DNA of 53,460 bases from a virus. Its lineage: Duplodnaviria > Caudoviricetes. Both the position numbers and the translations under genes were made by a program. How positions within the stretch are numbered: position 1 is the stretch's first letter; every line of letters starts with the position of its first letter. Location of the stretch: IMG/VR virus record IMGVR_UViG_3300001534_000001, positions 1-53,460 of that record. One strand, written 5' to 3'. The notes under the pieces are model-generated. The model made no database searches, was not told where the DNA came from, and saw only the letters and a program-made list of their open reading frames with translations. Shown one piece after another: positions 7,401 through 53,214 of this stretch.

Positions 7401-10400
7401 CCATTCGCATATCGGCATTGGATTCAGATTTCTCCCTGTTGGATTGTCCTGTGTGACTTGGGTTGCTTTGTATAGAGACGCACATCTCGTGCTGCAAAAT
7501 ACATACTTCTCCTTTTTGACCGGGACTTTCTGACACCACCTGCAAAGTGGTAAATATAATTCTGTCGTTATTGGTGAGGTCTTTTGCTCGGATGTATCCA
7601 TTTTCGGTTAATATATGGTGGTTGGACGTACATACAAAAGTACCGTATTTATGCCTCACTTTCAACATTTTATTTACAATTGGTTTCCTCAGCCAATTGG
7701 TTATTCTTTTTGTCTCATACGTCCCCGATAATACATTATAGCTTAATACTTGCAAGTCTAATTTTTGCTCAACTATCAGCCCTATTGGTAACCAACCTTT
7801 GGTTGTTAAGACCGGGGTTTCGTAAGGGAAACACTCGTCTAAGATTAAGTTATCAATCCCCATGTCCTCAAAATGCAAGGCCGACCTATCAGTATGACGA
7901 TTTAGCAACCTTTCCATTTTAGCTTCTGTACTCAAAGCCTTTTTAGCCTCATTCTTTACATTTTTACCCTTCTTTTCAATATACTCACCCTTTGCGTTCA
8001 TTTTAAGCGCATCCGGATCATCCACCAGGCGCATCTCGTGATCAAGGTCACGTAGCTTGCTTTCGATAGCTTTTTTATCGGCGCCATTATCAGCCTCGTC
8101 GATGGATTTTTGAAGATTATCTATTTTTTCCTGAATATATGCCTTGCGCCGCTCCGGCTTATCAGGGATCATATCAAATTGAGAATGCGGCATGATGATA
8201 GCATCCCAATCCTGCGTAGAAATTTTCGCATAAAGTTTAGCCCTGTTCTCTGCGGAGAAATCTGCTTCGGATGGCGCCAGTATTTTAGCCGTAGGATACA
8301 TTCTGCGGAAACTGGTAACATATTGCCCCAGCGTTGCTTTCTGTACCACCACCATCGTCTTTTTAGCCAATCCAAGCCTTTTAGCTTCCATGGCCAGGAT
8401 GTGCTGCACGAAGCTCTTACCGAAGCCAACCTCTTGCGCTCCGAGCGTACTTTCAGCAAGCCCCCTGGCTACTGATCTCTTTTGCTCATCGTATAAACTG
8501 ATTGTTTTAGACTGCCCCGGATAATAATCAATATTAGGTGTCTGCCAATTTCGCTCAACAAAATTGTTGTAGATTTTATTATATATCGGTTCGGTAATAT
8601 CCTGTGCCTCTTTATTTGACCGCATGAAAGTCACAAACTCATCCTCGATCTGCGCTTGCCTTTCCCTTGCTTCTTCAGTTGCATGAGCATCAATACCACC
8701 GCCGTCTGCTTTTGGCATACTAACGGTTGTCTGAATGTTATTTAAAGCGTTTTCTAACAGCCGTACACCATCAACACCACCACCTGCATAGGTGGTTCTA
8801 TTCCTTGAATCATGCAGGCCATAACTTGAAGCAATATCCCATTTAGCAAGGGCCTCTTTATATTTTATTGTTGAATCAACTCCTAAAAGTGATTTAACAA
8901 AATCTTCATAAATAGCAGGGGGAACCCAGGTTGAACCAAGTGAATATTGAATAAGTGATGCTGGTATATCTTTTGGAATAACTTTTTCAAGTTCAGCTAC
9001 GTTCCTATTAAACTTTTCATCAGTTTCAACAGCCGCTTTAGCCTGATCCAGTTTGTCACGCACATAGCCAGACAAGTATTCTTCCGGGCTTTCCAATAAA
9101 CCTGTATTCGGATTTTCAAAGGCAAGGTTTTCGTTTATTAACGTATTTTTAACATCAGCTACCGGCTGACCTAACAGTTTTGAAATATAATTCAGGTCAA
9201 GGCCGTTTCTGTAATTAAATGAAATATTTATAGCATCCTTAATATTTTCTGCTGCATCCGGTTCGGTACGGGGAAAGTTTATCCGCTTTTTAAATAATGC
9301 TGATTTTTTTATTTCGGTAACTTTTTTACCACCTCCCTTACCATCATCTACAAATTTATCCTTTGCTTCCTCTAACGATTGAACCAAAGGATAGTCAACG
9401 TCATCTTCAAGAAACTTTATTGCCCTATTTTTATGCAGGGCTTTATTCTTTTCAACAAAAGCATCGTATTCTTTATTTAATTCTTTTCGGAGGGCCTCAA
9501 TATTAGCTTCTGCATTTACCGGAGATAATTCCTGCTTGATCAATTCAAGCAACGTGGTTTTAAGTGCGATATATGCTTTGGCTATTTTTACCTCGGCAGG
9601 CTTTTCATTATACTTAGCTACTCCCTCACCATCCCTCACCATATAAATCTTACCGCCCTTTTCAAACATGCTGCCCTCTTTTTTGTCAATGGCCTCTACA
9701 GTTTCCTCAACAGGCTTTTCAACCTGTGCTGATTGTTCCTGCTGCATAATATCAGATGGGAAAGACTTGATAGCTTTATTTAAGTTTGAGATAACGTTGT
9801 ACCCCGATGGCGCATGTAACGTGGCATCCTTACCTCCATATAAGCCGCCTGATCCAGCTTCATCGGCTGTCATCATCTTACCAAGCATATTTTCAGGATG
9901 CTGATGATAATATTCATTTACATTTATAGGTACCTGGTTGCCCTCTTTATCAAAATGCTTTTCTTCTATTGGATAGGTGTACCTAAACTCATTCTCCAGT
10001 GGATTAATTTTATTATTATCCCGTTTACGGAATACTACAATATCAGTCGTAACCTGTGTGCCTGCGTTCTCTGAAAATGCGTTATTTGGTAGCCTCACAG
10101 CCCCCACAAGCACGCTATTGCCACCGTCCGGGCTTGACATCCATTCGCGGAATTTTGGGTCGCCATCAAGCGTGCTTTTCGATGTGATAACCATTGCAAC
10201 ACCGCCAGGCTTTAACAACCGCATACTTTTACCGATAAAGTAATTGTGCATGTTGAATTTGGAGATGTCAGGATAGTTTTTATCGAATGGCGCTTTCTGT
10301 GCAAATGGCACATTACCGATAACAAGGTCCTGGCTATTGGGCTGCACGTTTGATTTTTCAAAACCTGACACGGTTATCTTAGCTTCCGGGTAAAGTTTTT

Positions 10401-13400
10401 TAAGCATACGCCCGGTGATACTGTCGAGCTCATAGCCGGTTAGCTTTGTGCTGTCACGCAGGTCTTTCGGCATCAGGCCAAAGAAGTTTCCTATACCGGC
10501 AGATGTTTCCAGCGTATTCCCACCTTTAAAGCCCAACTGCTTTGCCAGTTCCCACATTTTATTGATAACCTGGCGTTCGGTATAGTTCGCGTTGATAGTT
10601 GAGTTTTTAGCCGCATTCAATTCATCATTGGTAAACAATGAGCTAACCAATGATTTGCGCACTTCATCTATACCGATTGGATAACCTGAATTATTTAGCT
10701 TATTCTTTATCTCATTGGCAAGTTCGCTGAATGAGGAATAAGAAGGTGCGTTAATGGGCCCGTCTTTTGAAAAGTCCAAAATTTTATTATCCCACCGGTT
10801 AAGGCGCACCACTTCGCGCTTCCCGGCTATGGCCGCATTTACAGCCTGCTCATTGGAGTATTCACCGCCTTTAAGGTATTCAGCCAAGCCCCCCCACCCG
10901 ACAAATTGTGCCAGTACCTTCTTTTCTTCCGGGGATGGGTTACGGTCTTCACTTTCCAGTTTTTTAAGCAGGAAAATGGCATCCATGTTTTTGTTGAACT
11001 TTTCAATAGGGGAGCCTTCACCTATTTCATCATCCTGCCGGATATAGTGATTTTGATCTTCAGGCTTTAAACTACGCTTTTCAGTATTTTTTGGTACTCC
11101 TGATCCGGCATTTTTGGAACGTCCTCCCTGTCTGTCAGGTCCACTTCCGGTGCCAGCAGGGCTTCCGTTATCATCGCTTCCACCTGGTCGTACTTCAGGG
11201 ACGGTTTGTTTTCCATGATCTGCATTTCCATTTTCACCGCTGTTGTTGTCAGGTCGTCCAGGTACTTCTTCAGTTTGTTTTCCTGGTACAGCATTTGCAG
11301 CCTTTCCGGGTAATTGTCCCGCAGGAATTGAAGGTGTATTTCCTTCCACTCGCTGTCGTTCATTGTCTGTTCCATTTTCTTTCTTGGTTATATAATCCTC
11401 AAATTTTGCTTTACGTACTTCTTTGAGGTTGGTCATGGCCTCTATTTCTTCATCGGTAGCATCTGCGCTGGTGGCAAATGCTCCGTATGCGGCTTTTAAT
11501 CCATCAAAAACTTCGCCAGCTTTTTCACCGAGATCTTCGTACAGGTCTTTAACTATCTCTCCAAAGTCGTGTATGCCTATTTTAGCGTAGATGGCCAGTA
11601 GTTTGATACCTTTCTCAATGGTTTCTGGATTAATGCCGGACATGGCCTTATTGAAGGTGTCCATAAAGGCTTTCTTTGCCTTTTTAAGCTCATCTTCGTA
11701 TTGGGCACGCTTGGACTGCTTTTCGGACTTCGGTTCTTCTTTTGGCTGCTCCGGTTCAGGAGCCTTTTCATCGGTAGTTTTAAAATCATCCTCGCGTGGC
11801 TGTAATCCAACCGTTACGCCTTGCCGGGTCGGGATGATATTTACTTTTTCCTGACTGAATATGCCATTACCCTCATCTTTAGCGCGAACACCATGCTCAT
11901 TTTCGTACAAATCCTTTCCTGCGGCATTTGTACCGACATGGGTATAAGGTGTGCGGTCTTTACCAAGCGTAATAACAGAGGGCGATTCTTTTGATGGTTG
12001 CGGTAACCCGGCATTAGCCAGTTCTTTGTCAACTTCATCAATAGATGCGTCTATTTCATTAATGACCCCTGCTGACTTGGCACTTCCTCTTGTTGTAGCC
12101 TTTGCTTTTCCAACTGTAACTGTCGCTTTAGCGATAACAGCTTCAGTATTTTCGGTATCGGTGTTTTCACCTTCGGGTTTGATTGTTCCTCGTGGGGATT
12201 TAAGGCCAGATTCATAAGATTGATCTATTTTTGCCTGCAACTCTGCTGGCGTTAGTTTTGATAAATTACGTTTATATGCTTCAATAGCATCTTCTTTGGT
12301 TTTTCCTTTTCCTAAAGATAGTCCGGTAGAACCCTCTGTGACACCATATCCGTCAGTACCATGAAGTTTATGAGTAAAAACATCTAATTTATAGTTGTTT
12401 TTTAAATTCAATGGTTCACCCTCTACCTGAACATATTCAGGTTTTTCGGCAGTCCCCATGGAAACATAGTACGGATTTTCGGCTACTTTTTGGTCATTAC
12501 CTTGTACTTGCCCGGCTTCATTTTTGGCTGCACTTTCTCCGGCAGGGACTTCTGATCGGTTTTCGCTGCCCAATCCTTCGCCCATGGCTGATGATTCGCG
12601 AATGCCCACTTTTCCTGTGCTTTGCTCTGAAATGGCATTTGTTGGTTCCTCCTTATTTGTTAATGTATAAAAATATTCTTTAGCCCTGAACGGAACTTTC
12701 CAACCGCTTTCCCTGGCATCAAGCTGTAATTGTCCGTTCTTATCAATTTGCCTAATCGTAGCAATATCTTGGCCTGTTTGACTTTTTGCAGTGATTAATG
12801 CAATATTGTTCCCGTCTTTATCAACATGCTGATCAAATATTTTAGCTGTCCCCTTTTTTATTGGCTCTATCGATTGATCGGGAGATAAAAATTTATTAAC
12901 ATCAGTTGTTTCGGTTTCTGCAACTACCGGCTTATTTTCAACAGTTTTATTAACTGGCGCAATAGCTTTTCCCGCGCCTGCTGTTTCATCTGCCGGTTGT
13001 TGAGCAGATATCTCCGTATTTGTTTTGGCTTGTTCATTTTTAGGTATAGTTGCTTTGATTATTCTATCAGGATTAGCGGCCACAACCTCGTCCAGCTTTT
13101 CAGCGTTGGTTTGGGCTGGTGCCTGCTGCTGTTTAAACGCATCCAGTTCATTATCCAGGTCATCAAGCTGTGAAGCATCAACCGCTGGTGATGCAGCTAC
13201 AGGCGCAGGTGGATTAGGCTGTACTGATTCAGCAGGCGCAGCTATTTGAGCGGCTCGTTTCTTTTCCTGTTCTTTCTCGTAATCTTCAAGATCAGCCCTG
13301 TCCTTTGTTATCTCAATCGGTTCCTCGCCGTTCTGCTGCTTCCAAAACTTACCTTCCTTCTCAAAATAACGGAATGACTTATCTGTAGCCAATTCGGTCA

Positions 13401-14838
13401 ATTGATCATTAGCCTGCTCAATCTTAGCCGTTACCAGGTTCTTTAAACCCTCTACCTTTGGCTGCATTGCCGGATCAATACCTGATTCATTATTTGCAAT
13501 ACCTTCCTGTACACCTTCCAATTGCCGCCTACCCAATATCAAGCTAACTGCGGCATTGAATTTATTTGGCTGCAAACCCTTTGGTATTGAATTAACCACA
13601 TCTGCGATTTCATCGACCTTTCCTTGTGTGTGTAAAATATCAGTAGCGCTCCATCCTTTTTGTTTCCCAATATTACCTAACTGAACTTTTATTGCCTGAA
13701 CTGTTTGTGGTGAACCATCCTTTTGCAAAACATCTACCACCGGATTAAGATATGGCGACTTATCGTACAGCATACCATCCGTAGAGGCCGCGTGTAGCAA
13801 TGAAAACCCAGCGGCAGGGGTATTTATCATATTTAAGGCAAATTGCCCTAATGAGCCGTTAGCTGGTGTGCTGTCATTGTAAACTGGTGAGGAAATATCC
13901 TTTACAATTTCATCACCGGTAACACCTGGAAAAGGTGCCTTATTATTTAAAGCATTAACACCTGCCTTTAAAGCACTCCTGGCAAGATTAGCCCCGGCGA
14001 AGTCAAGCGCAATATTAGGATATGCTTTTAAATATCCCAAACCAACCTGTCCAAACTTTTGAGAAAAGGATAATGTTTTGGCAAGGGCCTGCTGGCTGTA
14101 ATATTGTGAAATATCATCAGCCGTAGCATTTGCCGGTAAATCAGCAAGTGATCTTGTAGCATCAGCGGCTAATGAAGCGGTAACCTCATTCACAAGCGGC
14201 TGTCCCCCTACTTTACTTAATATTGTGCCGGTTACTGATTTACCTAAAGCGTAGCTGATAAGGCCGCTCCCATAAATCATCAACCTGTCTGTGCCATTAT
14301 CAAACTTAACTCCCTGTGCTTTTAGGTTATCAACGGTTCTTGACATATTGCCAACGGCCTGTAACCCCATGATCTTTGCGCCCTGTGATTCACCCCCCAA
14401 TAGCATGGGTATCATTTTACCTACAGATGCGGCAGAACTATTATTTATAAAATCCTGATTATATCCAAGGTTAGCGCCTTGGTCATACTTTGCCAAAGCA
14501 TCCATTTCGCCCTGCTGTATGTTTTGTTCATGGCCCGGATCAATAAAGCCAGCCTTAACACCCAAATCACCAATATCTGAATGTACTTGTTTTAATGCGT
14601 GTAACCCTTCACCAACGGCGTTCAATACACCAGCGTCAAACGGAATAACAACGTTTCTTACATGATCTGAAAAAGAGGGCTCACCTGCGGCAACCCTATC
14701 CGGCTTTTGTTGCGGGATATTGCCTACATTCTTATCTGCGTTTAGAATATTATTAGCATTTGGATCATAGATAGGAATTAACCCTGATTTAGCATCCGAC
14801 TCTGATTGCTGTTTGGTGTAAACAGGAGGGGACGGCAT
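1492..14838 (-). CDS. Giant polyvalent virion cargo protein with DarB-like N6-adenine DNA methyltransferase and SNF2-type helicase; intein-containing
   Basis: 4448 aa. Pre-methylase motif NMDAIFLLKKLESEDRNPSPEEKKVLAQFVGWGGL; SAM-binding LETSAGIGNFFG; motif IV IGNVPF; Walker A-like QEVGFGKS; Walker B ILDE^CH split by an intein; TGTPITN; helicase C motifs GSTEKMGVGVNAQ and QREGRILRPGN. Follows ejection-protein-like genes. Confidence 0.85.
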   Translation of the reverse strand: MPSPPVYTKQQSESDAKSGLIPIYDPNANNILNADKNVGNIPQQKPDRVAAGEPSFSDHVRNVVIPFDAGVLNAVGEGLHALKQVHSDIGDLGVKAGFIDPGHEQNIQQGEMDALAKYDQGANLGYNQDFINNSSAASVGKMIPMLLGGESQGAKIMGLQAVGNMSRTVDNLKAQGVKFDNGTDRLMIYGSGLISYALGKSVTGTILSKVGGQPLVNEVTASLAADATRSLADLPANATADDISQYYSQQALAKTLSFSQKFGQVGLGYLKAYPNIALDFAGANLARSALKAGVNALNNKAPFPGVTGDEIVKDISSPVYNDSTPANGSLGQFALNMINTPAAGFSLLHAASTDGMLYDKSPYLNPVVDVLQKDGSPQTVQAIKVQLGNIGKQKGWSATDILHTQGKVDEIADVVNSIPKGLQPNKFNAAVSLILGRRQLEGVQEGIANNESGIDPAMQPKVEGLKNLVTAKIEQANDQLTELATDKSFRYFEKEGKFWKQQNGEEPIEITKDRADLEDYEKEQEKKRAAQIAAPAESVQPNPPAPVAASPAVDASQLDDLDNELDAFKQQQAPAQTNAEKLDEVVAANPDRIIKATIPKNEQAKTNTEISAQQPADETAGAGKAIAPVNKTVENKPVVAETETTDVNKFLSPDQSIEPIKKGTAKIFDQHVDKDGNNIALITAKSQTGQDIATIRQIDKNGQLQLDARESGWKVPFRAKEYFYTLTNKEEPTNAISEQSTGKVGIRESSAMGEGLGSENRSEVPAGESAAKNEAGQVQGNDQKVAENPYYVSMGTAEKPEYVQVEGEPLNLKNNYKLDVFTHKLHGTDGYGVTEGSTGLSLGKGKTKEDAIEAYKRNLSKLTPAELQAKIDQSYESGLKSPRGTIKPEGENTDTENTEAVIAKATVTVGKAKATTRGSAKSAGVINEIDASIDEVDKELANAGLPQPSKESPSVITLGKDRTPYTHVGTNAAGKDLYENEHGVRAKDEGNGIFSQEKVNIIPTRQGVTVGLQPREDDFKTTDEKAPEPEQPKEEPKSEKQSKRAQYEDELKKAKKAFMDTFNKAMSGINPETIEKGIKLLAIYAKIGIHDFGEIVKDLYEDLGEKAGEVFDGLKAAYGAFATSADATDEEIEAMTNLKEVRKAKFEDYITKKENGTDNERQRVEGNTPSIPAGQLPGKAANAVPGKQTEEVPGRPDNNSGENGNADHGKQTVPEVRPGGSDDNGSPAGTGSGPDRQGGRSKNAGSGVPKNTEKRSLKPEDQNHYIRQDDEIGEGSPIEKFNKNMDAIFLLKKLESEDRNPSPEEKKVLAQFVGWGGLAEYLKGGEYSNEQAVNAAIAGKREVVRLNRWDNKILDFSKDGPINAPSYSSFSELANEIKNKLNNSGYPIGIDEVRKSLVSSLFTNDELNAAKNSTINANYTERQVINKMWELAKQLGFKGGNTLETSAGIGNFFGLMPKDLRDSTKLTGYELDSITGRMLKKLYPEAKITVSGFEKSNVQPNSQDLVIGNVPFAQKAPFDKNYPDISKFNMHNYFIGKSMRLLKPGGVAMVITSKSTLDGDPKFREWMSSPDGGNSVLVGAVRLPNNAFSENAGTQVTTDIVVFRKRDNNKINPLENEFRYTYPIEEKHFDKEGNQVPINVNEYYHQHPENMLGKMMTADEAGSGGLYGGKDATLHAPSGYNVISNLNKAIKSFPSDIMQQEQSAQVEKPVEETVEAIDKKEGSMFEKGGKIYMVRDGEGVAKYNEKPAEVKIAKAYIALKTTLLELIKQELSPVNAEANIEALRKELNKEYDAFVEKNKALHKNRAIKFLEDDVDYPLVQSLEEAKDKFVDDGKGGGKKVTEIKKSALFKKRINFPRTEPDAAENIKDAINISFNYRNGLDLNYISKLLGQPVADVKNTLINENLAFENPNTGLLESPEEYLSGYVRDKLDQAKAAVETDEKFNRNVAELEKVIPKDIPASLIQYSLGSTWVPPAIYEDFVKSLLGVDSTIKYKEALAKWDIASSYGLHDSRNRTTYAGGGVDGVRLLENALNNIQTTVSMPKADGGGIDAHATEEARERQAQIEDEFVTFMRSNKEAQDITEPIYNKIYNNFVERNWQTPNIDYYPGQSKTISLYDEQKRSVARGLAESTLGAQEVGFGKSFVQHILAMEAKRLGLAKKTMVVVQKATLGQYVTSFRRMYPTAKILAPSEADFSAENRAKLYAKISTQDWDAIIMPHSQFDMIPDKPERRKAYIQEKIDNLQKSIDEADNGADKKAIESKLRDLDHEMRLVDDPDALKMNAKGEYIEKKGKNVKNEAKKALSTEAKMERLLNRHTDRSALHFEDMGIDNLILDECFPYETPVLTTKGWLPIGLIVEQKLDLQVLSYNVLSGTYETKRITNWLRKPIVNKMLKVRHKYGTFVCTSNHHILTENGYIRAKDLTNNDRIIFTTLQVVSESPGQKGEVCILQHEMCVSIQSNPSHTGQSNREKSESNADMRMVQNKSSKSTVEKILFGTLCSEVSEQFATYSRAKETSRNLVGEKVFGDTKSKFVSQNEIKQSNEQPEICSKNESQYAGENIFVKGRQWDFNPAANYPMQSIGIAGGQYGVGDSDEACMGTIPIVAKSLQGGYWYARSDDSYRGRRENTQVEEMEVFGQAENGNFECVRVEGIEVYERASDAGFGFSNSPSDRVYDLTVADNHNYFAAGILVSNCHAYKKLGLTTSLQNIKGIDQTASKRAQSLYLKTRHIQEKTGGKNVNFFTGTPITNTMAEVWTWMRFIRPELVERLGITHFDQFVNTFGVIANDIEFNATGSFKNVNRFRSFKNAPELLTAFRSIAHVVLKDDVKEITDSGSVPKLLNGEKTKNIIPLTPPVKEILDSIVRQLKAWGNLSSQEKRLGRNRSIPVVLYGHAKVASIDPRMYNPEAQDHPDSKVNNLIKVIVKKHADTKAIKGTQMIFSDRQNSMTGERQYLDENEEFLNPAYGKKQFHLFEDMKKKLIAAGIPENEIAIATDPKYDKQERKQALFEAVNEGLVRVVFGSTEKMGVGVNAQKHLVAEHHLDVPNRPSDMVQREGRILRPGNENKIVEVSNNGMEGTADAMAYNVLMNKEKFIKQLMTTGTVERVIDDAAGEDVPTFDEMMARLSGSKYAIEKIKTDANIKREKTKKDIFFGRVIQAKRDLQSAQSNLNRNKAALNKDEFNAAKVEKSFPDGEILKVEVSGQPEATEKFPAAVDGYLDRLNKKYEESPTKYSTGEIKINGVPVQLSLHEGLGGSVLEYTILDLGIKDPYYTGKGIAVPSGKGVGLLSSLRSKLEDVIEKPGKTKALISQNTNNIEQLGHDIDQKFDDTHLKELEVRSETLKGLMIEEGVEKEKSENERLPAIDEILDQSNVKPILDAMDKLKAKPGGQMMGLLVPIPPAVWNGAIDILKNVVKATNSTQKAVRIAVKYIIDRGGDTAQASDFEQSINEMLAKTTIPQRHTAPDTNDTDTEANLVKAAIELQSKIKASSPDEKTFAKLPLIGLSKKQLHKYIEVAAVMAADPDGVLSSDLSGAIPPPKPPVTPPVTTGGEDGEPNRRIPKKEKIPMELIDAPESESPDEPDGVKKNYSLWGKLKDVHVRNLEQLKFYGKDMTDMTAFRAMLHFAASKSEANVNIKLSNDKINKLIGEDGYKVLREALMESRLRGTRERWQNFARDIRAMDDTELSDLFDAGKSSAVYSIIKDLEGYDDDENPAQSILALLDNQEYDDARDYLGQMFDNAADNVSFFGKLSNGKTFDEMTQPDGTGNLSFVNPKYQESLQQYKQLIEKPFRESHVTNEGIFSDALGPLDTYYPLSPVGKDAHKVVMPAKTKYNEPANINNHFTKGSADLYSSEISALAKKLSASFKTNNKAAAIRALYDAGLVAHVSGDSSDKYISINGVTYEATKVPVADARTIITNNQIIHTPTRYVLVPNWLYQEIKPIIEGDISDHDHYTAFGHILNATVNFMLGGPAEAVGHSYRLLSGIINSMPYMQEWAYQNGILGHAAGLVLNNPIVKIFGAMGKVLFTSPSSDEFAQDVQQMAAMGLIPEKTWTHTYSHEFAKSMGVEPTQFPLPWKDLLAGNFKKVFNKGKFLDFSPLLYGKNGIDLKARVTMFRLVRAMNPNATPEQYVKMLADMGQYTSSLQGKLEKFIKENGIAPFATFSRAYYRAGLKNLLMMTQMPIDNPFSKGGGGFDDPGKAGKFIYYKLAQIMTGGILGLIGYWMLIHKEVTGKWPSDDPHAKLLKVPIPEEWKKDAFIKKFYYNKRTNSWDDFSIGFTNIVADRGLKAVGAYKGYETAKLGGNIGQVIESSEIQAVNTYLSQYTASPLVSIPFTGTTGDAPYLSRIHNFRGQVEPSFLRKSKTAPAGLQMPENLAQGLFGINPMFEMANPISGSLDDDYNQKDYESGRFLKSILNIAAPQLMSPHGNDAKKAKSIKANANAIETTIKKEHENK
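6766..7833 (-). mobile_element. Intein (356 aa) inserted in the helicase DExH motif
   Basis: Starts CFPYETPVLT (block A); block B CTSNHHILT; ends VYDLTVADNHNYFAAGILVSN followed by extein Cys. Removal restores LILDE-CHAYK. Penultimate residue is Ser, not His. Confidence 0.92.
6774..7601 (-). CDS. Out-of-frame endonuclease nested in the intein: two CxxC/FCSxxC Zn motifs plus DUF559/Vsr-like PD-(D/E)xK domain
   Basis: 275 aa in the +1 frame relative to the host ORF. CRWC..FCSTRC, CEWC..FCSGHC, then YKVDIGMPDLMIAIEVDGKTH...ILNALGWKVLRFTNEQV. Confidence 0.85.
   Translation of the reverse strand: MDTSEQKTSPITTELYLPLCRWCQKVPVKKEKYVFCSTRCASLYKATQVTQDNPTGRNLNPMPICEWCKINPVKVRSKRFCSGHCAAKYRNSLPHIQEQKRLHGIWLGKKSLGIPSPSSSARMKLNNPMSNPKSVAKMKASMQGKTFLSRGGNGTLTPQQITLCKALGLPEDNMEWGIATRPVWGQFPSLPNHYKVDIGMPDLMIAIEVDGKTHRLKKWKFLDRRKTEILNALGWKVLRFTNEQVTQDLDLVIRQVTEFMTLQLPTTIITSPLAS
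11067..11375 (-). CDS. Overprinted (+1 frame) TnpV-like small protein inside the giant gene
   Basis: 102 aa. WKEIHLQFLRDNYPERLQMLYQENKLKKYLDDLTTTA resembles the TnpV pattern (W...HL.YL.E..P..Y..L...G.L..YL). The host frame here is low-complexity G/P/N/R-rich. A-rich sequence precedes the ATG. Confidence 0.65.
   Translation of the reverse strand: MEQTMNDSEWKEIHLQFLRDNYPERLQMLYQENKLKKYLDDLTTTAVKMEMQIMENKPSLKYDQVEAMITEALLAPEVDLTDREDVPKMPDQEYQKILKSVV
12483..12638 (-). CDS. Overprinted (+1 frame) 51-aa basic peptide MPFQSKAQEKWAFANHQPWAKDWAAKTDQKSLPEKV...
   Basis: Manual translation. TAAGGAGG (complement of 12648-12655) lies 9 nt before the ATG. Resembles short phage proteins beginning MPFKSKAQ (my recognition, unverified). 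Confidence 0.65.
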   Translation of the reverse strand: MPFQSKAQEKWAFANHQPWAKDWAAKTDQKSLPEKVQPKMKPGKYKVMTKK

Positions 14839-16881: not shown

Positions 16882-17061
16882 TTAGCTATTTAATTTTTTG
16901 TAGTTGTTTATTTTATCCCTAATTAAAGACAAATCATCAATAAACCCCTGCTTTTGGGTAATTGGAATATTAGGATTTATTATCATCTTTTCAGTTTCCT
17001 CTTTCGTCTCAATCATTGCTGAAAAGTTATTTTGTAGTGCTAATCTCGCGTTCTGTTCCAT
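16882..17061 (-). CDS. Small hypothetical protein (59 aa, MEQNARLALQNNF...)
   Basis: Manual translation. Fills the intergenic gap; leader TAAACATCAAAAATC-ATG is identical to that of the gene at 52421. Confidence 0.6.
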   Translation of the reverse strand: MEQNARLALQNNFSAMIETKEETEKMIINPNIPITQKQGFIDDLSLIRDKINNYKKLNS

Positions 17062-17084
17062 GATTTTTGATGTTTATTGTTTAA

Positions 17085-17795
17085 CTATATATGTCCCGCT
17101 GAAGGTAAAGGATTTCCATTTGCATCAAATCGGGGAGTGCCATCAGGAAAGGTTGCGTCACTCGTGCCAAAACCCTGCGCTATTCCTGTACCGTTCCCGG
17201 TTTTGCCGCCGTTATTCTTAGTGGTAGCTGCCCCATCGCCCACCTTCGAAAACGCATACTTTGCACCAAGCGCCGAAAGTGAATCAATGGCGCCGTAGGT
17301 GTTTGTCGCCCCGGCCTGTGTTAATGCCGCTTTCTCTCTTAACGCCTGGTCGTACTGCTGACGCTCCCATTCATTCTGATTTTGATATTGCTGGCCAGCC
17401 GACGCATTGCCGTTAAGATACTCGCCCAAAATACTTTGTTTGCCCTGCGCGCCCTGTACAGCCAATTGGTTATTTGCCTCGTTTTTTCCGTAAGCCATCT
17501 TTGTGGCAAGCCCTAAAATATCATTGCCGGATGTAGCGCCCCTTGCACCGTTATTAAAAGCATTGGAAAAGTTTGTATTTATATTTCCCTGAACGGCTGA
17601 ATAGCCGGGGAGTTGGTAGTTACCGTATTGCTGGCTTAATGTCCGGGCATTGTCCAATACGCCATAATTAACCTGATATCCTGGGTTCATAGGTTTAAGC
17701 CTGTTAGCCTGCGCCTGTTGGTCAGCCCCCTGTATTCCTTTATAAGCAGCGGCACCTGCTGATACCACTGTGCCCACAACCATCGCCCAAGCCAC
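17085..17795 (-). CDS. Putative ejection/pilot protein
   Basis: 236 aa; hydrophobic G/A-rich N-terminus followed by Q/N/A/G-rich helical sequence, typical of podovirus internal proteins. Confidence 0.6.
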   Translation of the reverse strand: MAWAMVVGTVVSAGAAAYKGIQGADQQAQANRLKPMNPGYQVNYGVLDNARTLSQQYGNYQLPGYSAVQGNINTNFSNAFNNGARGATSGNDILGLATKMAYGKNEANNQLAVQGAQGKQSILGEYLNGNASAGQQYQNQNEWERQQYDQALREKAALTQAGATNTYGAIDSLSALGAKYAFSKVGDGAATTKNNGGKTGNGTGIAQGFGTSDATFPDGTPRFDANGNPLPSAGHI

Positions 17796-29208: not shown

Positions 29209-30369
29209 TTAATGGTTAATAATTAAACTATTACTTCCTGTTTCAATGGGTTCGTAACCTACACCCTCCACAGGCACACCGGGTATTTTTAGCCCTGCAT
29301 TTCTTATATTTATTGCCGCATTTATGTCCCTGTCAATAGAAAAACCGCAACAATCACATTTATATACTCGTTCAGATAATAAAAGAATTTCTTTTATGTT
29401 TCCACAATTGGAACAGGTTTTACTTGACGGGAAAAAGGCTCCTACTTTTATTAGTTTCCTACCATACCAGGCCGCTTTATATTCAAGTTGATTAATCAAA
29501 ATATCCCAACTTGCATCGGAAATACTTCGTGCCACTTTGTGGTTTTTCATCATGTTTTGAATTTTTAGCGTTTCAATGACAATCGTTTGGTTCTCACGGA
29601 TTAGTTCGTTGGTTACCTGGTGATAGTAGTGTTCTCTTTGTCTAAATGATTTACGATATAATTTCGCTGTTTTGATGCGAAGTTTCTCACGGTTTTTGCC
29701 TCCTTTTTTTGATTTAGCAAATTTTCTTTTTATTTTTTTAAGTTTAAATTCAGAATTGATAAGGTATTTATTATTTGGGAATGTTACGCCATTAGAAGTA
29801 ATAATCAAATTTTTCAAACCGAGATCAATACCCAAAACATTATTAGTAAGTGATGGTAGCTTTACCGCTTCAGTTTTAATCAGGCAGGTTGCCCAATAAT
29901 CACCCGATTTGTCTTTTTTAAATGTAATTGTCCTTATTTCATTCGTATCCAACAACTTCATATAAAAGTCAGATGTTTTATATTTTATTGTGTTGCCATA
30001 AAATTTAATTTTACTGTCTTTGGATGATAGGCTTTGGTGGGCAAAAAAGGAATTATATTGTTTTTTACTTTTATATCGCGGATACCCCTTTCCGCTAAAA
30101 AAAAACTTAAAAGCAGCATCTAATTTCAAAGCTACCTCTCTTATACATTCAGCCTTACATTCTTTCAAAAAAGGAGTTTCTTTTCTTATTTCAAATAATT
30201 CTTTTTGTAATTGATAAGCTGTAATATTTATTTTATAATCATTCCACAACCATGTTTTATATTGAAGGCATAAATTATAACAAAACCTATAAGCGTTAAG
30301 GTGTTTTTCAAGCACCTCTTTTTGCTTAACAGTTGGGTATAATTTAACTTTTATCCTTTTAAAAACCAT
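29209..30369 (-). CDS. tnpB: IS200/IS605-family RNA-guided endonuclease TnpB (solo, no TnpA)
   Basis: N-terminal KVKLYPT...RFCYN; RuvC-I LGIDLG; RuvC-II IVIETL; Zn ribbon CSNCG...CDCCG; RuvC-III DRDINAAINI. Confidence 0.95.
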   Translation of the reverse strand: MVFKRIKVKLYPTVKQKEVLEKHLNAYRFCYNLCLQYKTWLWNDYKINITAYQLQKELFEIRKETPFLKECKAECIREVALKLDAAFKFFFSGKGYPRYKSKKQYNSFFAHQSLSSKDSKIKFYGNTIKYKTSDFYMKLLDTNEIRTITFKKDKSGDYWATCLIKTEAVKLPSLTNNVLGIDLGLKNLIITSNGVTFPNNKYLINSEFKLKKIKRKFAKSKKGGKNREKLRIKTAKLYRKSFRQREHYYHQVTNELIRENQTIVIETLKIQNMMKNHKVARSISDASWDILINQLEYKAAWYGRKLIKVGAFFPSSKTCSNCGNIKEILLLSERVYKCDCCGFSIDRDINAAINIRNAGLKIPGVPVEGVGYEPIETGSNSLIINH

Positions 30370-30609: not shown

Positions 30610-30827
30610 ACCAATTCTTTTTTATACCCAAAATGAAAAAATAATTTTTCGTAGCTTTCCTCTGATAGTTCGCCGTTGTTGTGGCGATGCTTCAATACCT
30701 GCGCTGCGTTTTTATCACAAAACGGTGTTGGAGGATCAAGTTCCAACCCCTCATACCAGTTTTTTGTAGCTGTTATAACCTGGAATAAATCTCTCGTGTT
30801 AAAAATTAATGCGTGTGGTCCTGCCAT
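30591..30827 (-). CDS. Hypothetical protein
   Basis: 78 aa; immediately downstream of a TATCTTTG box. Confidence 0.55.
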   Translation of the reverse strand: MAGPHALIFNTRDLFQVITATKNWYEGLELDPPTPFCDKNAAQVLKHRHNNGELSEESYEKLFFHFGYKKELVWTKHI

Positions 30828-35477: not shown

Positions 35478-35843
35478 TTAGGCAACCAATAATTTTTCTT
35501 CATGTCGCCTATTATATGTCGCTCTACGGTGGCAATTTGCGCACCTAACGTCACATTTTTCAATTTCTTCTTTTATTTTTACAAGTGAGTGTCCGGTTTT
35601 TCTAACCATATCAGAAATGTTGAAACTTTTTTCTCCTCTTACATGGTCAAATTCTAAAACAATAGGATCTGATTCTCCGCAATCAACACAATTATTTTCA
35701 GAAAGATATTTATTAACGTAAGTTGTATGAAATATTCGTGTATTTCTCTTATGAATTATAGACCGTTCTATCACCTTAATTTTATTGTTCTCATAATGTT
35801 TTTTTGCAGATGCTGATTGGTCTTTCTTATTTTTATACGGCAT
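35478..35843 (-). CDS. HNH endonuclease
   Basis: CVDCGESDPIVLEFDHVRG...KCDVRCANCHRRAT; likely start MPYKNKK at 35843. Confidence 0.9.
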   Translation of the reverse strand: MPYKNKKDQSASAKKHYENNKIKVIERSIIHKRNTRIFHTTYVNKYLSENNCVDCGESDPIVLEFDHVRGEKSFNISDMVRKTGHSLVKIKEEIEKCDVRCANCHRRATYNRRHEEKLLVA

Positions 35844-35865
35844 AATCACTGTTTTAATTATATAT

Positions 35866-35891
35866 CGAGCTACCAACTGCTCTACCCTGCG
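35866..35891 (-). pseudogene. 5' fragment of an initiator tRNA-Met-like gene (acceptor 5' strand plus D-arm)
   Basis: CGCAGGGTAGAGCAGTTGGTAGCTCG closely matches the 5' end of bacterial tRNA-fMet; no anticodon or T-arm follows. Confidence 0.7.
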
Positions 35892-43287: not shown

Positions 43288-43537
43288 AATTAGTAATTCT
43301 CCTTATTTTCGTGTACGTATCGTCAAACTCAAAGGGGTAGCCAGCGTCGATGAAGCCCTTCACCGTCTCGCTGATCTTCTCGAAGTCTGCTCGGTTGTCA
43401 ATTCGAAACCATTCAAACTTAGCCATCGTCAGCAAAACATCAAGCAACTTTTGCTCGAAGGTTTTATCCTGGTAAAAATCGGGCTTATTAGAACGGAAGG
43501 TCTTTGCTGTCTTCTTCATTTGATGAAATAAATTCAA
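43280..43537 (-). CDS. Hypothetical protein
   Basis: 85 aa overlapping the dnaB 3' end; FEFDDTYTKIRR C-terminus. Confidence 0.55.
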   Translation of the reverse strand: MNLFHQMKKTAKTFRSNKPDFYQDKTFEQKLLDVLLTMAKFEWFRIDNRADFEKISETVKGFIDAGYPFEFDDTYTKIRRITNFE

Positions 43538-45005: not shown

Positions 45006-45832
45006 GGTCTATCATCGTGATTAATTCTTTGGTTTGTTGGCGCAATTATTGAATTTCCATTAAATGGTTTGTTAATAAATGGTTCTTTCTTTGCCCATGT
45101 TGCAAGTCGTTTAGATAATTCCCATGTTTTTTCAGATTCCCATCTCATACGACTACGTGATTTATTTGGTTCGTTCCAATATTCAAAAAAATCGTGAACC
45201 ATATCTTTTGTGTAAGGGCCTTTGTTTTTACCGTAATTAGTGAATGGAAATAAACTTGTTTTGAATTTTTCTTTTCTATCATCAAAAGTAGAAATCCACT
45301 TATTTATTGGTGGTTTGGACGGAGGCGGTGAAACCGCATCAGGCAACATAACTTTAGTTATGTCTTCTATACTCTTCTCTTCTCTTATATACTCTTCTAT
45401 AGTATGTGGTTTTACGGGTACTTTTACTCCATTAAGTACACCTAAACTGGTTAAAAGTACCCGTAAACCATCAATTGTTATACAATTATTATTTCTTTTC
45501 TTATATGCCTCTTGAATATTGTCGATAAAATACTGACACCAAATTATCTTATACTCCCATAATTCTTTATCAAACTTTCCGAGTTTAGCCAGGTAGGATA
45601 TTATTTCTAAAAGCAATTCTTCAGATACATTACACCTGGATGAAAGGTATATTAATTCATCTTCATTATTAAGATCAAGATAATGATATTCAGTGGAAGC
45701 AAGTTTGTCAAGAATTTTAAAAAAAGCGGCATAGCCGTCATTTTTATATTTTTTATCAAGAGAATACATCTTTTTACCATCTTCAACGATATGAGGATAA
45801 TAATCTACTGTATTACGTTCTGGCCTGGCCAT
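45002..45832 (-). CDS. Phage replication initiator (DUF4373/Lin1244-like N-terminus)
   Basis: MARPERNTVDYYPH...KYKNDGYAAFFKIL; EEYIREEKSIE linker; FFEYWNEPNKS...MRWE.EKTWELSKRLATW C-domain; overlaps the dnaB start. Confidence 0.75.
   Translation of the reverse strand: MARPERNTVDYYPHIVEDGKKMYSLDKKYKNDGYAAFFKILDKLASTEYHYLDLNNEDELIYLSSRCNVSEELLLEIISYLAKLGKFDKELWEYKIIWCQYFIDNIQEAYKKRNNNCITIDGLRVLLTSLGVLNGVKVPVKPHTIEEYIREEKSIEDITKVMLPDAVSPPPSKPPINKWISTFDDRKEKFKTSLFPFTNYGKNKGPYTKDMVHDFFEYWNEPNKSRSRMRWESEKTWELSKRLATWAKKEPFINKPFNGNSIIAPTNQRINHDDRP
45411..45468. repeat. Iteron-like repeats inside the initiator gene (candidate origin)
   Basis: Perfect 16-bp inverted repeat TTTACGGGTACTTTTA (45411-45426) / TAAAAGTACCCGTAAA (45452-45467), with a degenerate third copy AAGTACACCTAAAC between them. 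Confidence 0.7.
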
Positions 45833-45858
45833 AGGATTATTTATTTAAGTTTGTAGTT

Positions 45859-46131
45859 TCAAAATCCGACTATTTGTTTATCAAATTCTACCTGGAATTT
45901 TTGTTTATTATACATTAATTCAGGATAATGTAATGTCAAAAAACAAATAATCGCTTTTTCATAAACCATGGCATTTTGTTTAGATGTATTTCCATAAATA
46001 CGTCTATAACCATTAAATTTCTTATCTCTTTTATGTGCAGTTAATCGTTTAGGTATATTGTCAGAGCAGCCAACATAAACGGGAATACCGTCACTGTAGA
46101 GTACATACACAAACCAAAATCCATTTGCCAT
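45859..46131 (-). CDS. GIY-YIG nuclease family protein
   Basis: FVYVL...PVYVGCS..IPKRLTAH...E..II...YNK. Confidence 0.8.
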   Translation of the reverse strand: MANGFWFVYVLYSDGIPVYVGCSDNIPKRLTAHKRDKKFNGYRRIYGNTSKQNAMVYEKAIICFLTLHYPELMYNKQKFQVEFDKQIVGF

Positions 46132-46170
46132 AGGTTTAATTATTTTTAAAAATTAGGTGGTAGGAAAGCC

Positions 46171-46350
46171 TTAAACAGCAATCTTAGATGCTTGTAATAA
46201 GATGTTTTTAATTTTTGTTTCAATTTCTGCCGACATGGTTGCATTACCAGCCAGCATCATTGATAGGTGAGCTGAACTGATACCTACCTTGTCGGCAATG
46301 AAACTTTTTAAGAGTCCCGACGCTTCAATATCTTTTTTAAGTTTTTCCAT
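46171..46350 (-). CDS. Cro/XRE-like HTH regulator (59 aa)
   Basis: Not in the ORF track. MEKLKKDIEASGLLKSFIADKVGISSAHLSMMLAGNATMSAEIETKIKNILLQASKIAV; TATGTTTG box at 46355-46362. Confidence 0.8.
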   Translation of the reverse strand: MEKLKKDIEASGLLKSFIADKVGISSAHLSMMLAGNATMSAEIETKIKNILLQASKIAV

Positions 46351-46387
46351 GCGACAAACATATTTAATTATTTTTAAATAAACAAAT

Positions 46388-46478
46388 AAAAATAAACCGG
46401 GAGAAACATCAATAACCCCCGGTCTTTATTTCTACAGGATCATAACAACATCCCCTGGCGGGAAAGGTGTATTGCAGA
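46388..46478 (-). ncRNA. Candidate small RNA (about 90 nt)
   Basis: Own TAACTTTG box (46483-46490), no substantial ORF, ends in a GACCGGG...CCCGGT hairpin plus U-tract; complementary to early-gene leaders. Confidence 0.5.
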
Positions 46479-46498
46479 AGCACAAAGTTAAATATATT

Positions 46499-47041
46499 TT
46501 ATGCTTCAACAAGATTTAAATTAGCAAATTCTCCATGATGCACCTTAGCTGCACAGTTATATGCCAAAGCTGCCATTTTTTCATCTTTAAATGTTCCCAA
46601 ATGTATAGATTTTTCAGAGTTTTTTATTTTTGCAATCCATCTTTTTCGATTACTATCAAAATGTACACCTAAATATTTAGAAGTTGATCCAATTTTAGAA
46701 CATTTATTTTTATTATTTTGTGAAATATCAGCATCTCTTAGGTTATCTATAAAGTCATTTAGAGTATTTCTATCCTTGTGATCCACTATAGGTGGCAGAT
46801 AACCATGATGCCATAGAAATATTAATCGAGACGAATGATAATGATCTCTATTAATACCAACAACATATCTAAAACCATACTTACATTTTGCTTTTTTACC
46901 CGCAACTGTACCAATGCTTATATCACTCCTTGGTTTTATTTTCCAATAAAGCCTTCCGTCTTTGTAATCGAAAAGTGTTTTAACAAATTCTTGTGTGATG
47001 CCATTTATTTTTTCTCTGATACCACGTTTTTGATTTTTCAT
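46499..47041 (-). CDS. HNH endonuclease with C-terminal AP2 domain
   Basis: SRLIFLWHHG..P..VDHKDRNTLND.IDNLR..N; SKYLGVH...WIAKI...HLGTF.DE..AALAYN.AA...HGEFANLN. Confidence 0.92.
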   Translation of the reverse strand: MKNQKRGIREKINGITQEFVKTLFDYKDGRLYWKIKPRSDISIGTVAGKKAKCKYGFRYVVGINRDHYHSSRLIFLWHHGYLPPIVDHKDRNTLNDFIDNLRDADISQNNKNKCSKIGSTSKYLGVHFDSNRKRWIAKIKNSEKSIHLGTFKDEKMAALAYNCAAKVHHGEFANLNLVEA

Positions 47042-47051
47042 AATAAAAAGA

Positions 47052-47162
47052 CCCGGCAAATCAATGTGCGTAGTAAATCAATCCGAAAGAAGGAATTACC
47101 ATTGATCTGACCGGGAATATTTTAAGGTGAAATTTTCATTTTAAGAATTGATTAACTACGCA
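47052..47162 (-). promoter_or_regulatory. Structured leader with interleaved inverted repeats (attenuator-like)
   Basis: Pair A: 47052-47066 with 47100-47115, followed by a U-tract on the minus strand. Pair B: 47067-47082 with 47147-47162. TATATTTG box at 47166-47173. Confidence 0.6.
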
Positions 47163-47181
47163 TCACAAATATATAAATAAA

Positions 47182-47796
47182 TTACGCTGTTATCAATTCT
47201 CCCTGAACTTTTTTCAATTTATGCTCCGTGTTCACATGAGGCACATTAGGCAGTTCTATCTGCTGTTGCATCCCGGCGCCGTGCTTCTTGCGTGAATTAT
47301 ACAAATCCGCCTCTGTAAGCAACCTATCTATCTGCTCGTCCAGTATATCCACCAGCGGATAATTATATCCTTCCGGCTCACGTTTAAGTGGTATGGATGG
47401 CGTTTTCAGCTTTACTACCTCGCCTGAACTGGTCGTCTTGGTGCCAAATATCTGCACACCATCCGAAGCGTGCTTCCCCTGGATAAGAATACCGGTAATA
47501 TCCAATCCGCCAAAGCGATCCTTTTCTTCCTCGGTGTCAGCAATGAAATCATTGAAGTGGACCGCCTGTAGATAGTTACCATTGCAGTCGGTAGGCGTAT
47601 GCAACTCACAGGCGATAAGTAGGTGCGGCTTCAGCTTGTCCATGGCCCGTTCAAAGTCTGCATGGCGTGGAAGGTCGCTCCGCTTGATGTTCTTGTCGTT
47701 AATGGGCTCATTGCTGTCCCGAGGTTGCTGTGATTCATCGAAGCCGATGAATGTTTCGTCTTTCTTGAAAACGATGTGTTTGATTTTAATTGCCAT
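47182..47796 (-). CDS. Hypothetical phage protein
   Basis: 204 aa; PRHADFERAM..LKPHL and VKLKTPSI motifs; function unknown. Confidence 0.65.
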   Translation of the reverse strand: MAIKIKHIVFKKDETFIGFDESQQPRDSNEPINDKNIKRSDLPRHADFERAMDKLKPHLLIACELHTPTDCNGNYLQAVHFNDFIADTEEEKDRFGGLDITGILIQGKHASDGVQIFGTKTTSSGEVVKLKTPSIPLKREPEGYNYPLVDILDEQIDRLLTEADLYNSRKKHGAGMQQQIELPNVPHVNTEHKLKKVQGELITA

Positions 47797-52276: not shown

Positions 52277-52420
52277 CCCGATAAGATGCCCGTCAAGCTA
52301 CGGGTTTAATCTGCCAGCCCTGCCTAACACGCGGGGTTTCGGCAGTAGAAGCGCATCCCAACATCAAATCAGGTTATGCGGTTCGGTAAATAAATACAGG
52401 ACAATTAAACATCAAAAATC

Positions 52421-52621
52421 ATGAATGAGATTACCACAAGACCAAAAACAAGGTCAATCACCACAACAGTTAAGAAATTCGTAACATTGTCAGCTATTGC
52501 CGTAGTGTTGTTCGCCAGCACAGCCAGCGCACAGCGTCACAGGAAGGCCACAGGAGGGCCGAAAGCGCCGCGGGAACACAAAGCAAGTGCGCATAAGAAT
52601 CAGGGCGGACACTACGAATAA
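52421..52621 (+). CDS. Small secreted basic peptide precursor
   Basis: KKFVTLSAIAVVLFASTASA-Q signal peptide; 29-aa H/K/R/G-rich mature part. Confidence 0.6.
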   Translation: MNEITTRPKTRSITTTVKKFVTLSAIAVVLFASTASAQRHRKATGGPKAPREHKASAHKNQGGHYE

Positions 52622-52914: not shown

Positions 52915-52945
52915 TTTGTAATTAGAAATAAGTTACTTACATTTG
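52915..52945 (+). promoter_or_regulatory. Consensus Bacteroidota sigma-70 promoter
   Basis: TTTG (52915-52918), 19-nt spacer, TACATTTG (52938-52945). Confidence 0.75.
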
Positions 52946-52983
52946 ACTTACGAAAATACAGGATAACATCAAAACATCAAATC

Positions 52984-53214
52984 ATGGACTTATACAACTT
53001 CTTAGGCGCTTGTTTGCGGCCATTGGGCAGTCAACAGCGTTTATTTAAACTCAAAGATCATTGGGCAGCCATGCTTGTTGATCGGGCCGGTGAAATGTGC
53101 GATGCTTGCATCGAAGCCCAGGACATGACAAAGGCGCTAAAATACAGCGCTATTTCCATCCGGCTGATAAAGTACCGTCAAAACTTAATAGAACGCTACC
53201 CTTTAGGTTATTAA
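52984..53214 (+). CDS. Hypothetical early protein
   Basis: 76 aa after the consensus promoter and an AACATCAA leader. Confidence 0.6.
   Translation: MDLYNFLGACLRPLGSQQRLFKLKDHWAAMLVDRAGEMCDACIEAQDMTKALKYSAISIRLIKYRQNLIERYPLGY

Follow-up and report, generated by a model that had tools for sequence, protein, structure and literature searches.

The 6S RNA of phage lambda (pR'-tR') is a leader that is stopped at a terminator and read through by Q antitermination, and the c4 RNA of phages P1 and P7, which governs the antirepressor in lysogenic immunity, is cut from the operon that it controls. The present analysis concerns a candidate for a further short phage RNA, encoded in a 148-nucleotide (nt) spacer (46351-46498) between an HNH homing-endonuclease gene and a 59-amino-acid (aa) Cro/XRE-like gene of the 53,460-bp virus record IMGVR_UViG_3300001534_000001 (Caudoviricetes), the whole of which is called the window below. 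As summarised in a 2025 review (PMC12197685), c4 uses short complementary blocks, thought to be loop-borne, which pair around the ribosome-binding region of the phage mRNA and block its translation, while OOP of lambda and sar of P22 are short phage transcripts bounded by a promoter and a terminator and located beside regulatory genes. Among bacterial small RNAs (sRNAs), the GibS type of Bacteroides thetaiotaomicron is described as having its own start and an intrinsic terminator, as AT-rich and as pairing with translation initiation regions, in a phylum reported to have neither Hfq-type seeds nor Shine-Dalgarno (SD) sequences (Ryan 2020, PMC7366714). The full-text literature searches list no small RNA from a Bacteroidota phage, and the string 'Bacteroid' does not occur in the text of the review available as PMC12197685.

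In comparison with an ordinary Rho-independent terminator, the spacer likewise has a 10-bp GC stem and a U-tract, placed after the HNH gene and before the promoter of the next operon, but it differs in its 14-nt loop and in the presence of a promoter-like box ~55 nt upstream of the terminator stem. Similarly to c4, the candidate RNA has short complementary blocks, here three, of which one is found in a loop and another beside a start codon; it lies, however, ~6 kb from its supposed targets and on the other strand, and its pairing energy is at the chance level. A preliminary description of this DNA, which proposed a multi-target sRNA that silences early genes as an immunity or timing switch, finds no backing for the immunity role: among the 40 proteins scanned (PHROGs) of a possibly incomplete record, no lysogeny gene, integrase, antirepressor or repressor-integrase module was seen. 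GibS has one extended, conserved, single-stranded 5' seed, whereas the blocks of the candidate are short, split and half paired. As for the short phage transcripts of 70-200 nt (OOP, sar, 6S), the candidate resembles them in its promoter and terminator bounds; OOP and sar, however, overlap their targets on the opposite strand, while no plus-strand gene overlaps the candidate unit, and, unlike in 6S, a separate promoter follows the terminator.

The spacer is read here, with slightly less than even confidence, as an intrinsic terminator that marks the boundary of the HNH cassette, without a dedicated trans-acting RNA role. The Rho-independent hairpin and its U-tract would halt minus-strand transcription arriving from the early small open reading frame (ORF) block and the HNH gene, and transcription of the Cro-like and replication genes would begin afresh at a conserved promoter of their own, yielding a leaderless mRNA. 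Firing of the promoter-like box after the HNH stop codon may produce a short RNA of ~90 nt that ends at the terminator, and the same sequence would in any case form the 3' untranslated region (UTR) of the HNH transcript. The short matches to two leaders would arise because these leaders carry a common A-rich, SD-less start word together with one coincidence of a 7-8-mer.

Anatomy of the spacer

On its minus strand the spacer contains a promoter-like box, ~91 nt without an ORF, a 10-bp GC-rich hairpin with a U-tract, and then a second promoter (Table 1). The sequences quoted in the preliminary description are all present, including TACAGGA...AACATC...ATG at 52395-52423 and 52957-52986, and its statement that the unit lacks a substantial ORF is borne out, as no ORF of at least 30 aa is found on the minus strand of the unit. 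The minimum free energy (MFE) of the candidate RNA is −29.4 kcal/mol (z −2.90), with 1 of 200 shuffles folding as well.

Table 1. Coordinates of the spacer features, the flanking genes and the two leaders within the window
Feature	Position	Strand	Details
Bacteroidota-type promoter-like site TTG-N19-TAACTTTG	46483-46512	-	TTG 46512-46510, 19-nt AT-rich spacer, box 46490-46483
Candidate non-coding RNA, ~91 nt	46388-46478	-	Independent, or 3' UTR of HNH mRNA
Putative intrinsic-terminator hairpin	46394-46425	-	10-bp GC-rich stem, 14-nt loop, U-tract to about 46388; −15.9 kcal/mol
Anti-leader block GAUGUU	46447-46452	-	Complements AACAUC near both start codons; mean unpaired probability 0.38
Anti-leader block UCCUGUA	46433-46439	-	Complements UACAGGA at -26/-27 of both leaders; mean unpaired probability 0.45
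Loop word UUGAUGUUU	46404-46412	-	Complements AAACAUCAA in 4 start regions (17061, 49503, 52421, 52984); mean unpaired probability 0.70
59-aa Cro/XRE-fold helix-turn-helix gene	46171-46350	-	AlphaFold2 (AF2) pLDDT 89.2, four helices; phrog_6831 E 7e-4
Conserved promoter of Cro-like gene (predicted)	46355-46377	-	15-mer TTAAAAATAATTAAA, TATGTTTG, 4 nt, ATG
Free-standing HNH homing-endonuclease gene (HNH_3 + AP2-like domain)	46499-47041	-	phrog_99 E 2.5e-53
Promoter + hairpin unit upstream of HNH	47042-47173	-	Box TATATTTG 47173-47166; MFE −31.5 kcal/mol, z −3.29
Upstream gene, 204 aa	47182-47796	-	Precedes promoter box at 47173-47166
Leader 1, of 66-aa gene 52421-52621	52348-52423	+	Hairpin 52348-52384 with AACAUCAA in loop
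Leader 2, of 76-aa gene 52984-53214	52938-52986	+	Promoter box TACATTTG 52938-52945

The terminator tail reads ATTTTTATTT, and the GC-rich stem runs immediately into the U-tract, as in Rho-independent terminators; the plus-strand reading of the hairpin is also followed by a T-rich run. Together, hairpin and U-tract form the strongest same-sense intergenic terminator-like site nearby, directly after a gene. The loop, with its weak 2-bp inner stem, is larger than the short loops (3-8 nt) of intrinsic terminators, and the automated terminator scan, which allowed loops of 3-8 nt, hence overlooked this hairpin.

According to the Rfam search of the whole window at the gathering score, no known RNA family is present. 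Two matches below this score were rejected as noise, namely RAGATH-22 around the unit (21.7 bits under E-value thresholds, compared with a gathering score of 120.3) and ALIL, the only Rfam match in the right-hand region (15.2 bits versus 50). The direct-repeat search reports no repeat family that takes in the unit, only weak two-copy matches.

The start predicted from the promoter-like box, which itself follows the HNH stop codon by 8 nt, is 46478/46477. The -7 box TAACTTTG and its TTG-type -33 element agree with the Bacteroidota primary-sigma consensus (-33 TTTG / -7 TAnnTTTG, with about 19-21 nt between the two elements); the consensus and the position of the start were taken from Baez 2019 (PMC6847099), where a -7 box TAHHTTTG and a start 4-5 nt after the box are given for Bacteroidota. 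The extended pattern TTG-N17-21-TAnnTTTG has 15 matches in the genome, compared with 4.4 ± 2.1 in shuffles. Seven of the 15 are intergenic (2,858 bases, ~5% of the genome), each facing a downstream gene, and 3 more lie in doubtful short ORFs at the divergent promoter region. Judged by these matches, the extended pattern is a fairly specific promoter predictor in this genome. A sigma-70 promoter scan, which models the wrong promoter type for this genome, was uninformative (41 found versus 34 expected).

The copy in the spacer, however, departs from the phage's own pattern: its third box position is A and its predicted +1 is U, while in all 6 other intergenic boxes the third position is T or C and a purine stands 5 nt beyond the box. 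This difference favours the terminator reading and counts against an sRNA with a promoter of its own. The promoter-to-terminator unit proposed earlier is plausible as far as the box and the hairpin with its U-tract are concerned, with a box that is atypical at both of these positions. The chance that the box fires is put at about even, which matters less than it might, since the HNH transcript would in any case include this stretch, as far as the hairpin, as its 3' UTR.

Complementarity to the leaders of two small genes

The supposed targets are the leaders of the plus-strand genes at 52421-52621 and 52984-53214. In leader 1 the hairpin is followed by UACAGGA (52395) and then by AAACAUCAAAAAUC-AUG, whereas leader 2 carries UACAGGAU and two AACAUCAA words and is unstructured (MFE −0.3 kcal/mol; equalled or bettered by 196 of 200 shuffles). 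TACAGGA begins 26 or 27 nt before the ATG in both, and the unpaired probability of the leaders is 0.5-0.8. The candidate RNA contains GAUGUUGUUAUGAUCCUGUA (46452-46433). Its complementarity to the leaders is discontinuous, with blocks of 8/9, 7/8 and 6 nt and no 20-nt duplex, and 2 of the 3 blocks are half buried, being ~60% paired inside the predicted fold; the four bases at the 3' end of UCCUGUA form part of the predicted 5' stem of the RNA.

Several results weigh against the boundary-element reading. The spacer copy of a fairly specific promoter pattern has no gene to serve, and the 14-nt terminator loop, compared with 4-5 nt in 4 other intergenic terminators, exposes a sequence exactly complementary to the complex word that recurs most often in the start regions. 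TACAGGA-N0-14-AACATC occurs 3 times versus 0.03 expected, in the spacer and the two leaders and with every copy in plus-strand orientation, and it is the transcribed strand of the spacer that carries the complement. Moreover, leader 1 is colinear with the spacer plus strand in 3 exact blocks, AACATCAA, TACAGGA and AACATC, which form a chain of 21 nt. Chains at least as long arise in 0.35% of 2000 dinucleotide shuffles and in 0.39% of 10,584 natural 91-nt windows; leader 2 has a shorter chain of 15 nt (0.8% of shuffles, 0.3% of natural windows), and no other among the 878 intergenic-dominated windows reaches these values. Orphan promoter-like box, large loop and colinear three-block match are what sustains the antisense idea. 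Taken singly, the words are less unusual, with 11 copies of TACAGGA versus 5.0 expected and 10 of AACATCAA versus 3.1.

According to that idea, a trans-acting antisense sRNA of ~91 nt, transcribed from its own promoter or freed from the HNH 3' UTR, would bind both leaders, with the loop UUGAUGUU(U) contacting AACAUCAA, UCCUGUA contacting UACAGGA, and GAUGUU contacting AACAUC beside the start codon. The SD-less A-rich start region would be occluded and translation lowered, which would act as a timing switch. This explanation is considered unlikely. An equally doubtful version of it is a c4-like timing switch in a lytic phage that needs no chaperone and proceeds through a loop-loop kiss followed by the two linear contacts; such a kiss is conceivable, as AACAUCAA of leader 1 lies in a predicted hairpin loop. 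The antisense sRNA agrees with the presence of a promoter-like box and a terminator around sequence without an ORF, an anatomy that marked validated intergenic sRNAs in Bacteroides, as described in Ryan 2020 (PMC7366714). It is also supported by the block statistics, by the accessibility of both leaders and by the anti-start-site word in the unusual loop. The blocks, however, are only 6-9 bp long and two of them are largely paired within the RNA itself. In addition, 0.35% multiplied by 56 leaders suggests that roughly one candidate RNA in five would show such a chain, which is an estimate and not a computed control.

Hybridisation energy is at the chance level. Among the 56 leaders, cofolding gives a change in free energy (ddG) of −11.4 kcal/mol for 52984 (rank 1), −8.0 for 17061 and −7.1 for 52421 (rank 5), so that the two supposed targets are first and fifth. 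However, 65% of 86 controls, in which the 5' 52 nt were shuffled and the terminator kept, equal or beat the best ddG (mean best −12.9 ± 2.9), and the function claimed earlier is not supported by this comparison. As for duplex energy, the observed best is reached by 50% of 300 shuffles and 39% of 300 natural 52-mers, with the claimed leader only 7th, and among the 7122 windows of a genome-wide scan the claimed sites come 1524th and 1798th. Smith-Waterman alignment of the spacer with five leader regions is not significant either (p 0.49, 0.32, 0.18, 0.67, and 0.12). Better-than-chance target pairing, which marks a trans-acting sRNA, is thus not seen in the energies, and only the exact-block chain is nominally rare (0.35%). 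With regard to the leader complementarity of the preliminary description, the bipartite motif and the block chain are indeed rare, but local alignment and energy are not.

The loop word bears on the supposed multi-target role. Its counterpart AAACATCAA occurs 6 times versus 1.2 expected and is the most recurrent G/C-containing word in the 35 nt before starts (4 of 56 regions as a 9- or 10-mer, 5 as an 8-mer), with adenines at -3, -12, and -13, as well as at -6 in leader 1 and the 17061 leader, all of them positions described as favourable in Flavobacterium (Baez 2019). It precedes structural-half genes (17061, and 35441 as an 8-mer), the small early-side gene 49503 and the two plus-strand genes; the form AAACATCA stands before the ATGs at 17061 and 35441. 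Outside start regions it is not enriched, with 2 copies (the terminator loop and a probable coding frame at 43435) versus 1.19 expected genome-wide. The word is best read as a strong A-rich, SD-less start-site context that does not mark early genes in particular. As it also precedes structural-region genes, an RNA loop able to pair with it would not pick out the early ones, a further point against the antisense sRNA. The preliminary description was correct that AAACAUCAA precedes several genes, including 17061 and 35441, but what it took for a set of early targets appears to be a general A-rich start-site context of the kind typical of Bacteroidota.

Some other properties of these leaders were also recorded. 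The leaders at 17052-17098 (minus strand) and 52384-52430 (plus strand), which belong to a 59-aa gene (16882-17061) and the 66-aa gene (52421-52621), show 72% similarity across 47 nt and share an identical 17-mer ending in ATG. Before the 66-aa gene lies a GC-rich inter-cistronic stretch with 3 hairpins (52277-52395, plus strand; −41.2 kcal/mol for a 164-nt segment, z −2.37), for which Rfam reports no match. The product of the 66-aa gene is a small protein with a hydrophobic, signal-like segment.

Second unit, relatives and the remaining explanations

A second promoter-hairpin unit precedes the HNH gene, whose leader of ~120 nt forms a long hairpin closed by CCCGG/CCGGG with a U-tract that abuts the HNH ATG. 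The promoter regions of the two units align, and each begins right after a TAA stop. This second unit could throttle HNH expression or make another short transcript. The likeness of the two tandem units, in which a box right after a stop codon is followed after ~55-110 nt by a hairpin and U-tract, is a point in favour of attenuation. In that case the box would be a second promoter of the Cro-like/replication operon, its transcript would stop at the hairpin, much like the lambda 6S RNA, and later be read through via phage or host antitermination, and the unit before the HNH gene would act likewise. The position of the spacer, where the small-ORF block meets the replication genes, fits as well. 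Nevertheless, a dedicated conserved promoter between the terminator and the Cro-like gene makes read-through unneeded, the scan of 40 proteins revealed no antiterminator, and attenuation is regarded as distinctly improbable.

The only relative found to share the Cro-like neighbourhood is G001, a complete 73,355-bp virus record containing locus L014, whose Cro-like protein is 71% identical. Nucleotide similarity to it covers only 46116-46379 (78%), a span that takes in the Cro-like gene, its 15-mer-containing promoter and the following intergenic 15-mer, and stops just before the terminator U-tract. Upstream, the relative has an unrelated HNH gene (BLASTP E 0.058) ending 76 nt before the same promoter, and in its spacer there is no box, no hairpin and no anti-leader block. 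The bipartite leader motif and any match to the right-hand 2.8 kb of the window are absent from it too, and this joint absence of unit and leaders is compatible with every hypothesis. Since the similarity stops before the terminator and the HNH genes differ, the unit goes with the variable HNH side of a mosaic junction, which speaks against the antisense sRNA. The site itself appears, from the sequences compared, to be a hot spot for homing-endonuclease genes.

Other searches do not recover the unit, which is a second argument from conservation against the antisense sRNA. Its exact 24-mer has 0 occurrences in IMG/VR, blastn-short and nhmmer against 40 loci give nothing below E 0.31, and INPHARED blastn of 45800-47200 reports only 3 irrelevant 7% matches. 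The leader pattern has one match in IMG/VR, in coding-looking sequence of an unrelated 95.6-kb record. Regarding the neighbouring genes, homologues of the replication initiator are found in 5 IMG/VR and 8 metagenome loci (at most 66% aa identity, rearranged neighbourhoods) and those of the HNH protein in 22 loci (35-46%), while no homologous loci were obtained for the 204-aa upstream gene and the terminase.

In L014 a different HNH gene stops 76 nt short of the Cro-like promoter, which also raises the possibility that the spacer is the decayed 3' end, C-terminus and terminator, of an older HNH gene displaced by the present one, with accidental anti-leader matches. MAFFT aligns the last codons of the L014 HNH gene with 46474-46433, and one spacer frame resembles its C-terminus (Y-T-..-A-R/K-G-x-C-F/Y-D/E). 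However, the match extends over ~9 codons with a 2-codon indel, the similarity is not among the matches listed by permissive tblastn (E up to 100), and no upstream remnant was found, so that this origin is held to be highly improbable.

As for the Cro-like gene, the Cro-like character proposed earlier is supported by structure comparison. The top Foldseek matches are C.EcoT38IS (TMq 0.88), 434 Cro (0.61), P22 c2 (0.74-0.76), C.BclI, and SinR, all with E of at least 0.076, as expected for so short a domain, and Pfam matches are sub-threshold; the model thus supports a lambda-repressor-like/XRE fold. The PDB sequence search reports weak HigA matches (E 0.6-1) and a RecA C-terminal domain (single domain, E 0.02), the latter rejected in favour of the structure-found XRE fold, and tblastn of the protein against phage records yields nothing.

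The promoter of this gene lies 5 nt from the ATG, an arrangement kept in the relative, and its mRNA is predicted to be leaderless; a second gene with TAnnTTTG, 4 bases and ATG, for which a leaderless mRNA is likewise predicted, begins at 30827 (minus strand). The exact 15-mer TTAAAAATAATTAAA flanks the Cro-like gene at 46363-46377 and 46135-46149 (minus strand), and in L014 at about 2470-2486 and 2700-2716; it is likely an operator or promoter element of the Cro-like cassette. The last explanation, that a phage regulator binds TACAGGA-N-AACATC as DNA or plus-strand RNA at the leaders and that the spacer copy is an operator or decoy, could appeal to the 3 one-stranded copies versus 0.03 expected and to the adjoining gene with a DNA-binding Cro/XRE fold, but has only a very slight chance of being correct, as the leader motif is spaced to the ATG (-26/-27) and not to a promoter, no promoter box lies near leader 1, the motif lacks dyad symmetry, no plus-strand gene or promoter follows the spacer copy, and the 15-mer kept in L014 is a better operator candidate for the Cro-like protein.

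Genomic setting, host signals and meaning

On the minus strand the order is HNH gene, 148-nt spacer, 59-aa gene, 90-aa GIY-YIG gene, replication initiator and DnaB-type helicase, which places the unit at the transition from the small-ORF block to the replication genes. The HNH gene also matches Pfam HNH_3 (E 7.9e-8) and, under its cutoff, AP2 (29.7 bits). Endonuclease genes lie on either side of the Cro-like cassette, the second being that of the GIY-YIG domain protein (90 aa, 45859-46131, minus strand; Pfam E 2.5e-5), and another HNH gene is found at 35478-35876 (minus strand; phrog_2255 E 2.7e-26). The phage genome further includes a TnpB/IS605 OrfB-type gene of 386 aa (29209-30369, minus strand; phrog_506 E 1.6e-106; Pfam OrfB_IS605, Cas12f1-like TNB and HTH_OrfB_IS605) and a single ORF of 4,448 aa (1492-14838, minus strand), which takes up a quarter of the record. 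The window has neither tRNA nor tmRNA genes.

The record is probably an incomplete fragment, because ORFs are cut by both of its ends and a protein identical to the Cro-like protein is also present on a 72,582-bp contig; three others at 81-92% identity exist, and a further identical or near-identical one is on a 69,303-bp contig. Past the right end of the record there may be additional genes and leaders on the plus strand. The record derives from soil metagenome DNA. Three DNA runs from one soil study contain the stretch, two of them with 87% and 51% of its words, and no RNA sequencing run containing it is listed, neither of which has any bearing on expression.

Nearly all genes lack SD sequences and have A-rich start regions ending in ...AAAAATC-ATG or similar, and TAnnTTTG boxes are present in intergenic regions. 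Adenines at -3, -6, -12, and -13 are described as favouring initiation in Flavobacterium (Baez 2019, PMC6847099). From these promoter and start-site signals, the host phylum is suggested to be Bacteroidota; no host genome match was obtained, and a comparison of the TnpB-like gene with GTDB genomes gave 2 distant matches that are uninformative on the host.

If the antisense explanation were true, the unit would be the first regulatory RNA shown for a Bacteroidota phage, as far as the literature found goes, and would show RNA silencing of translation in a phylum that initiates without SD pairing. As the evidence stands, the spacer is better understood as an ordinary boundary of terminator and promoter next to a mobile endonuclease gene. 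In practical terms, it offers a mapped case of promoters of the Bacteroidota type, of leaderless starts and of terminators, as predicted here, in an otherwise unannotated soil phage.

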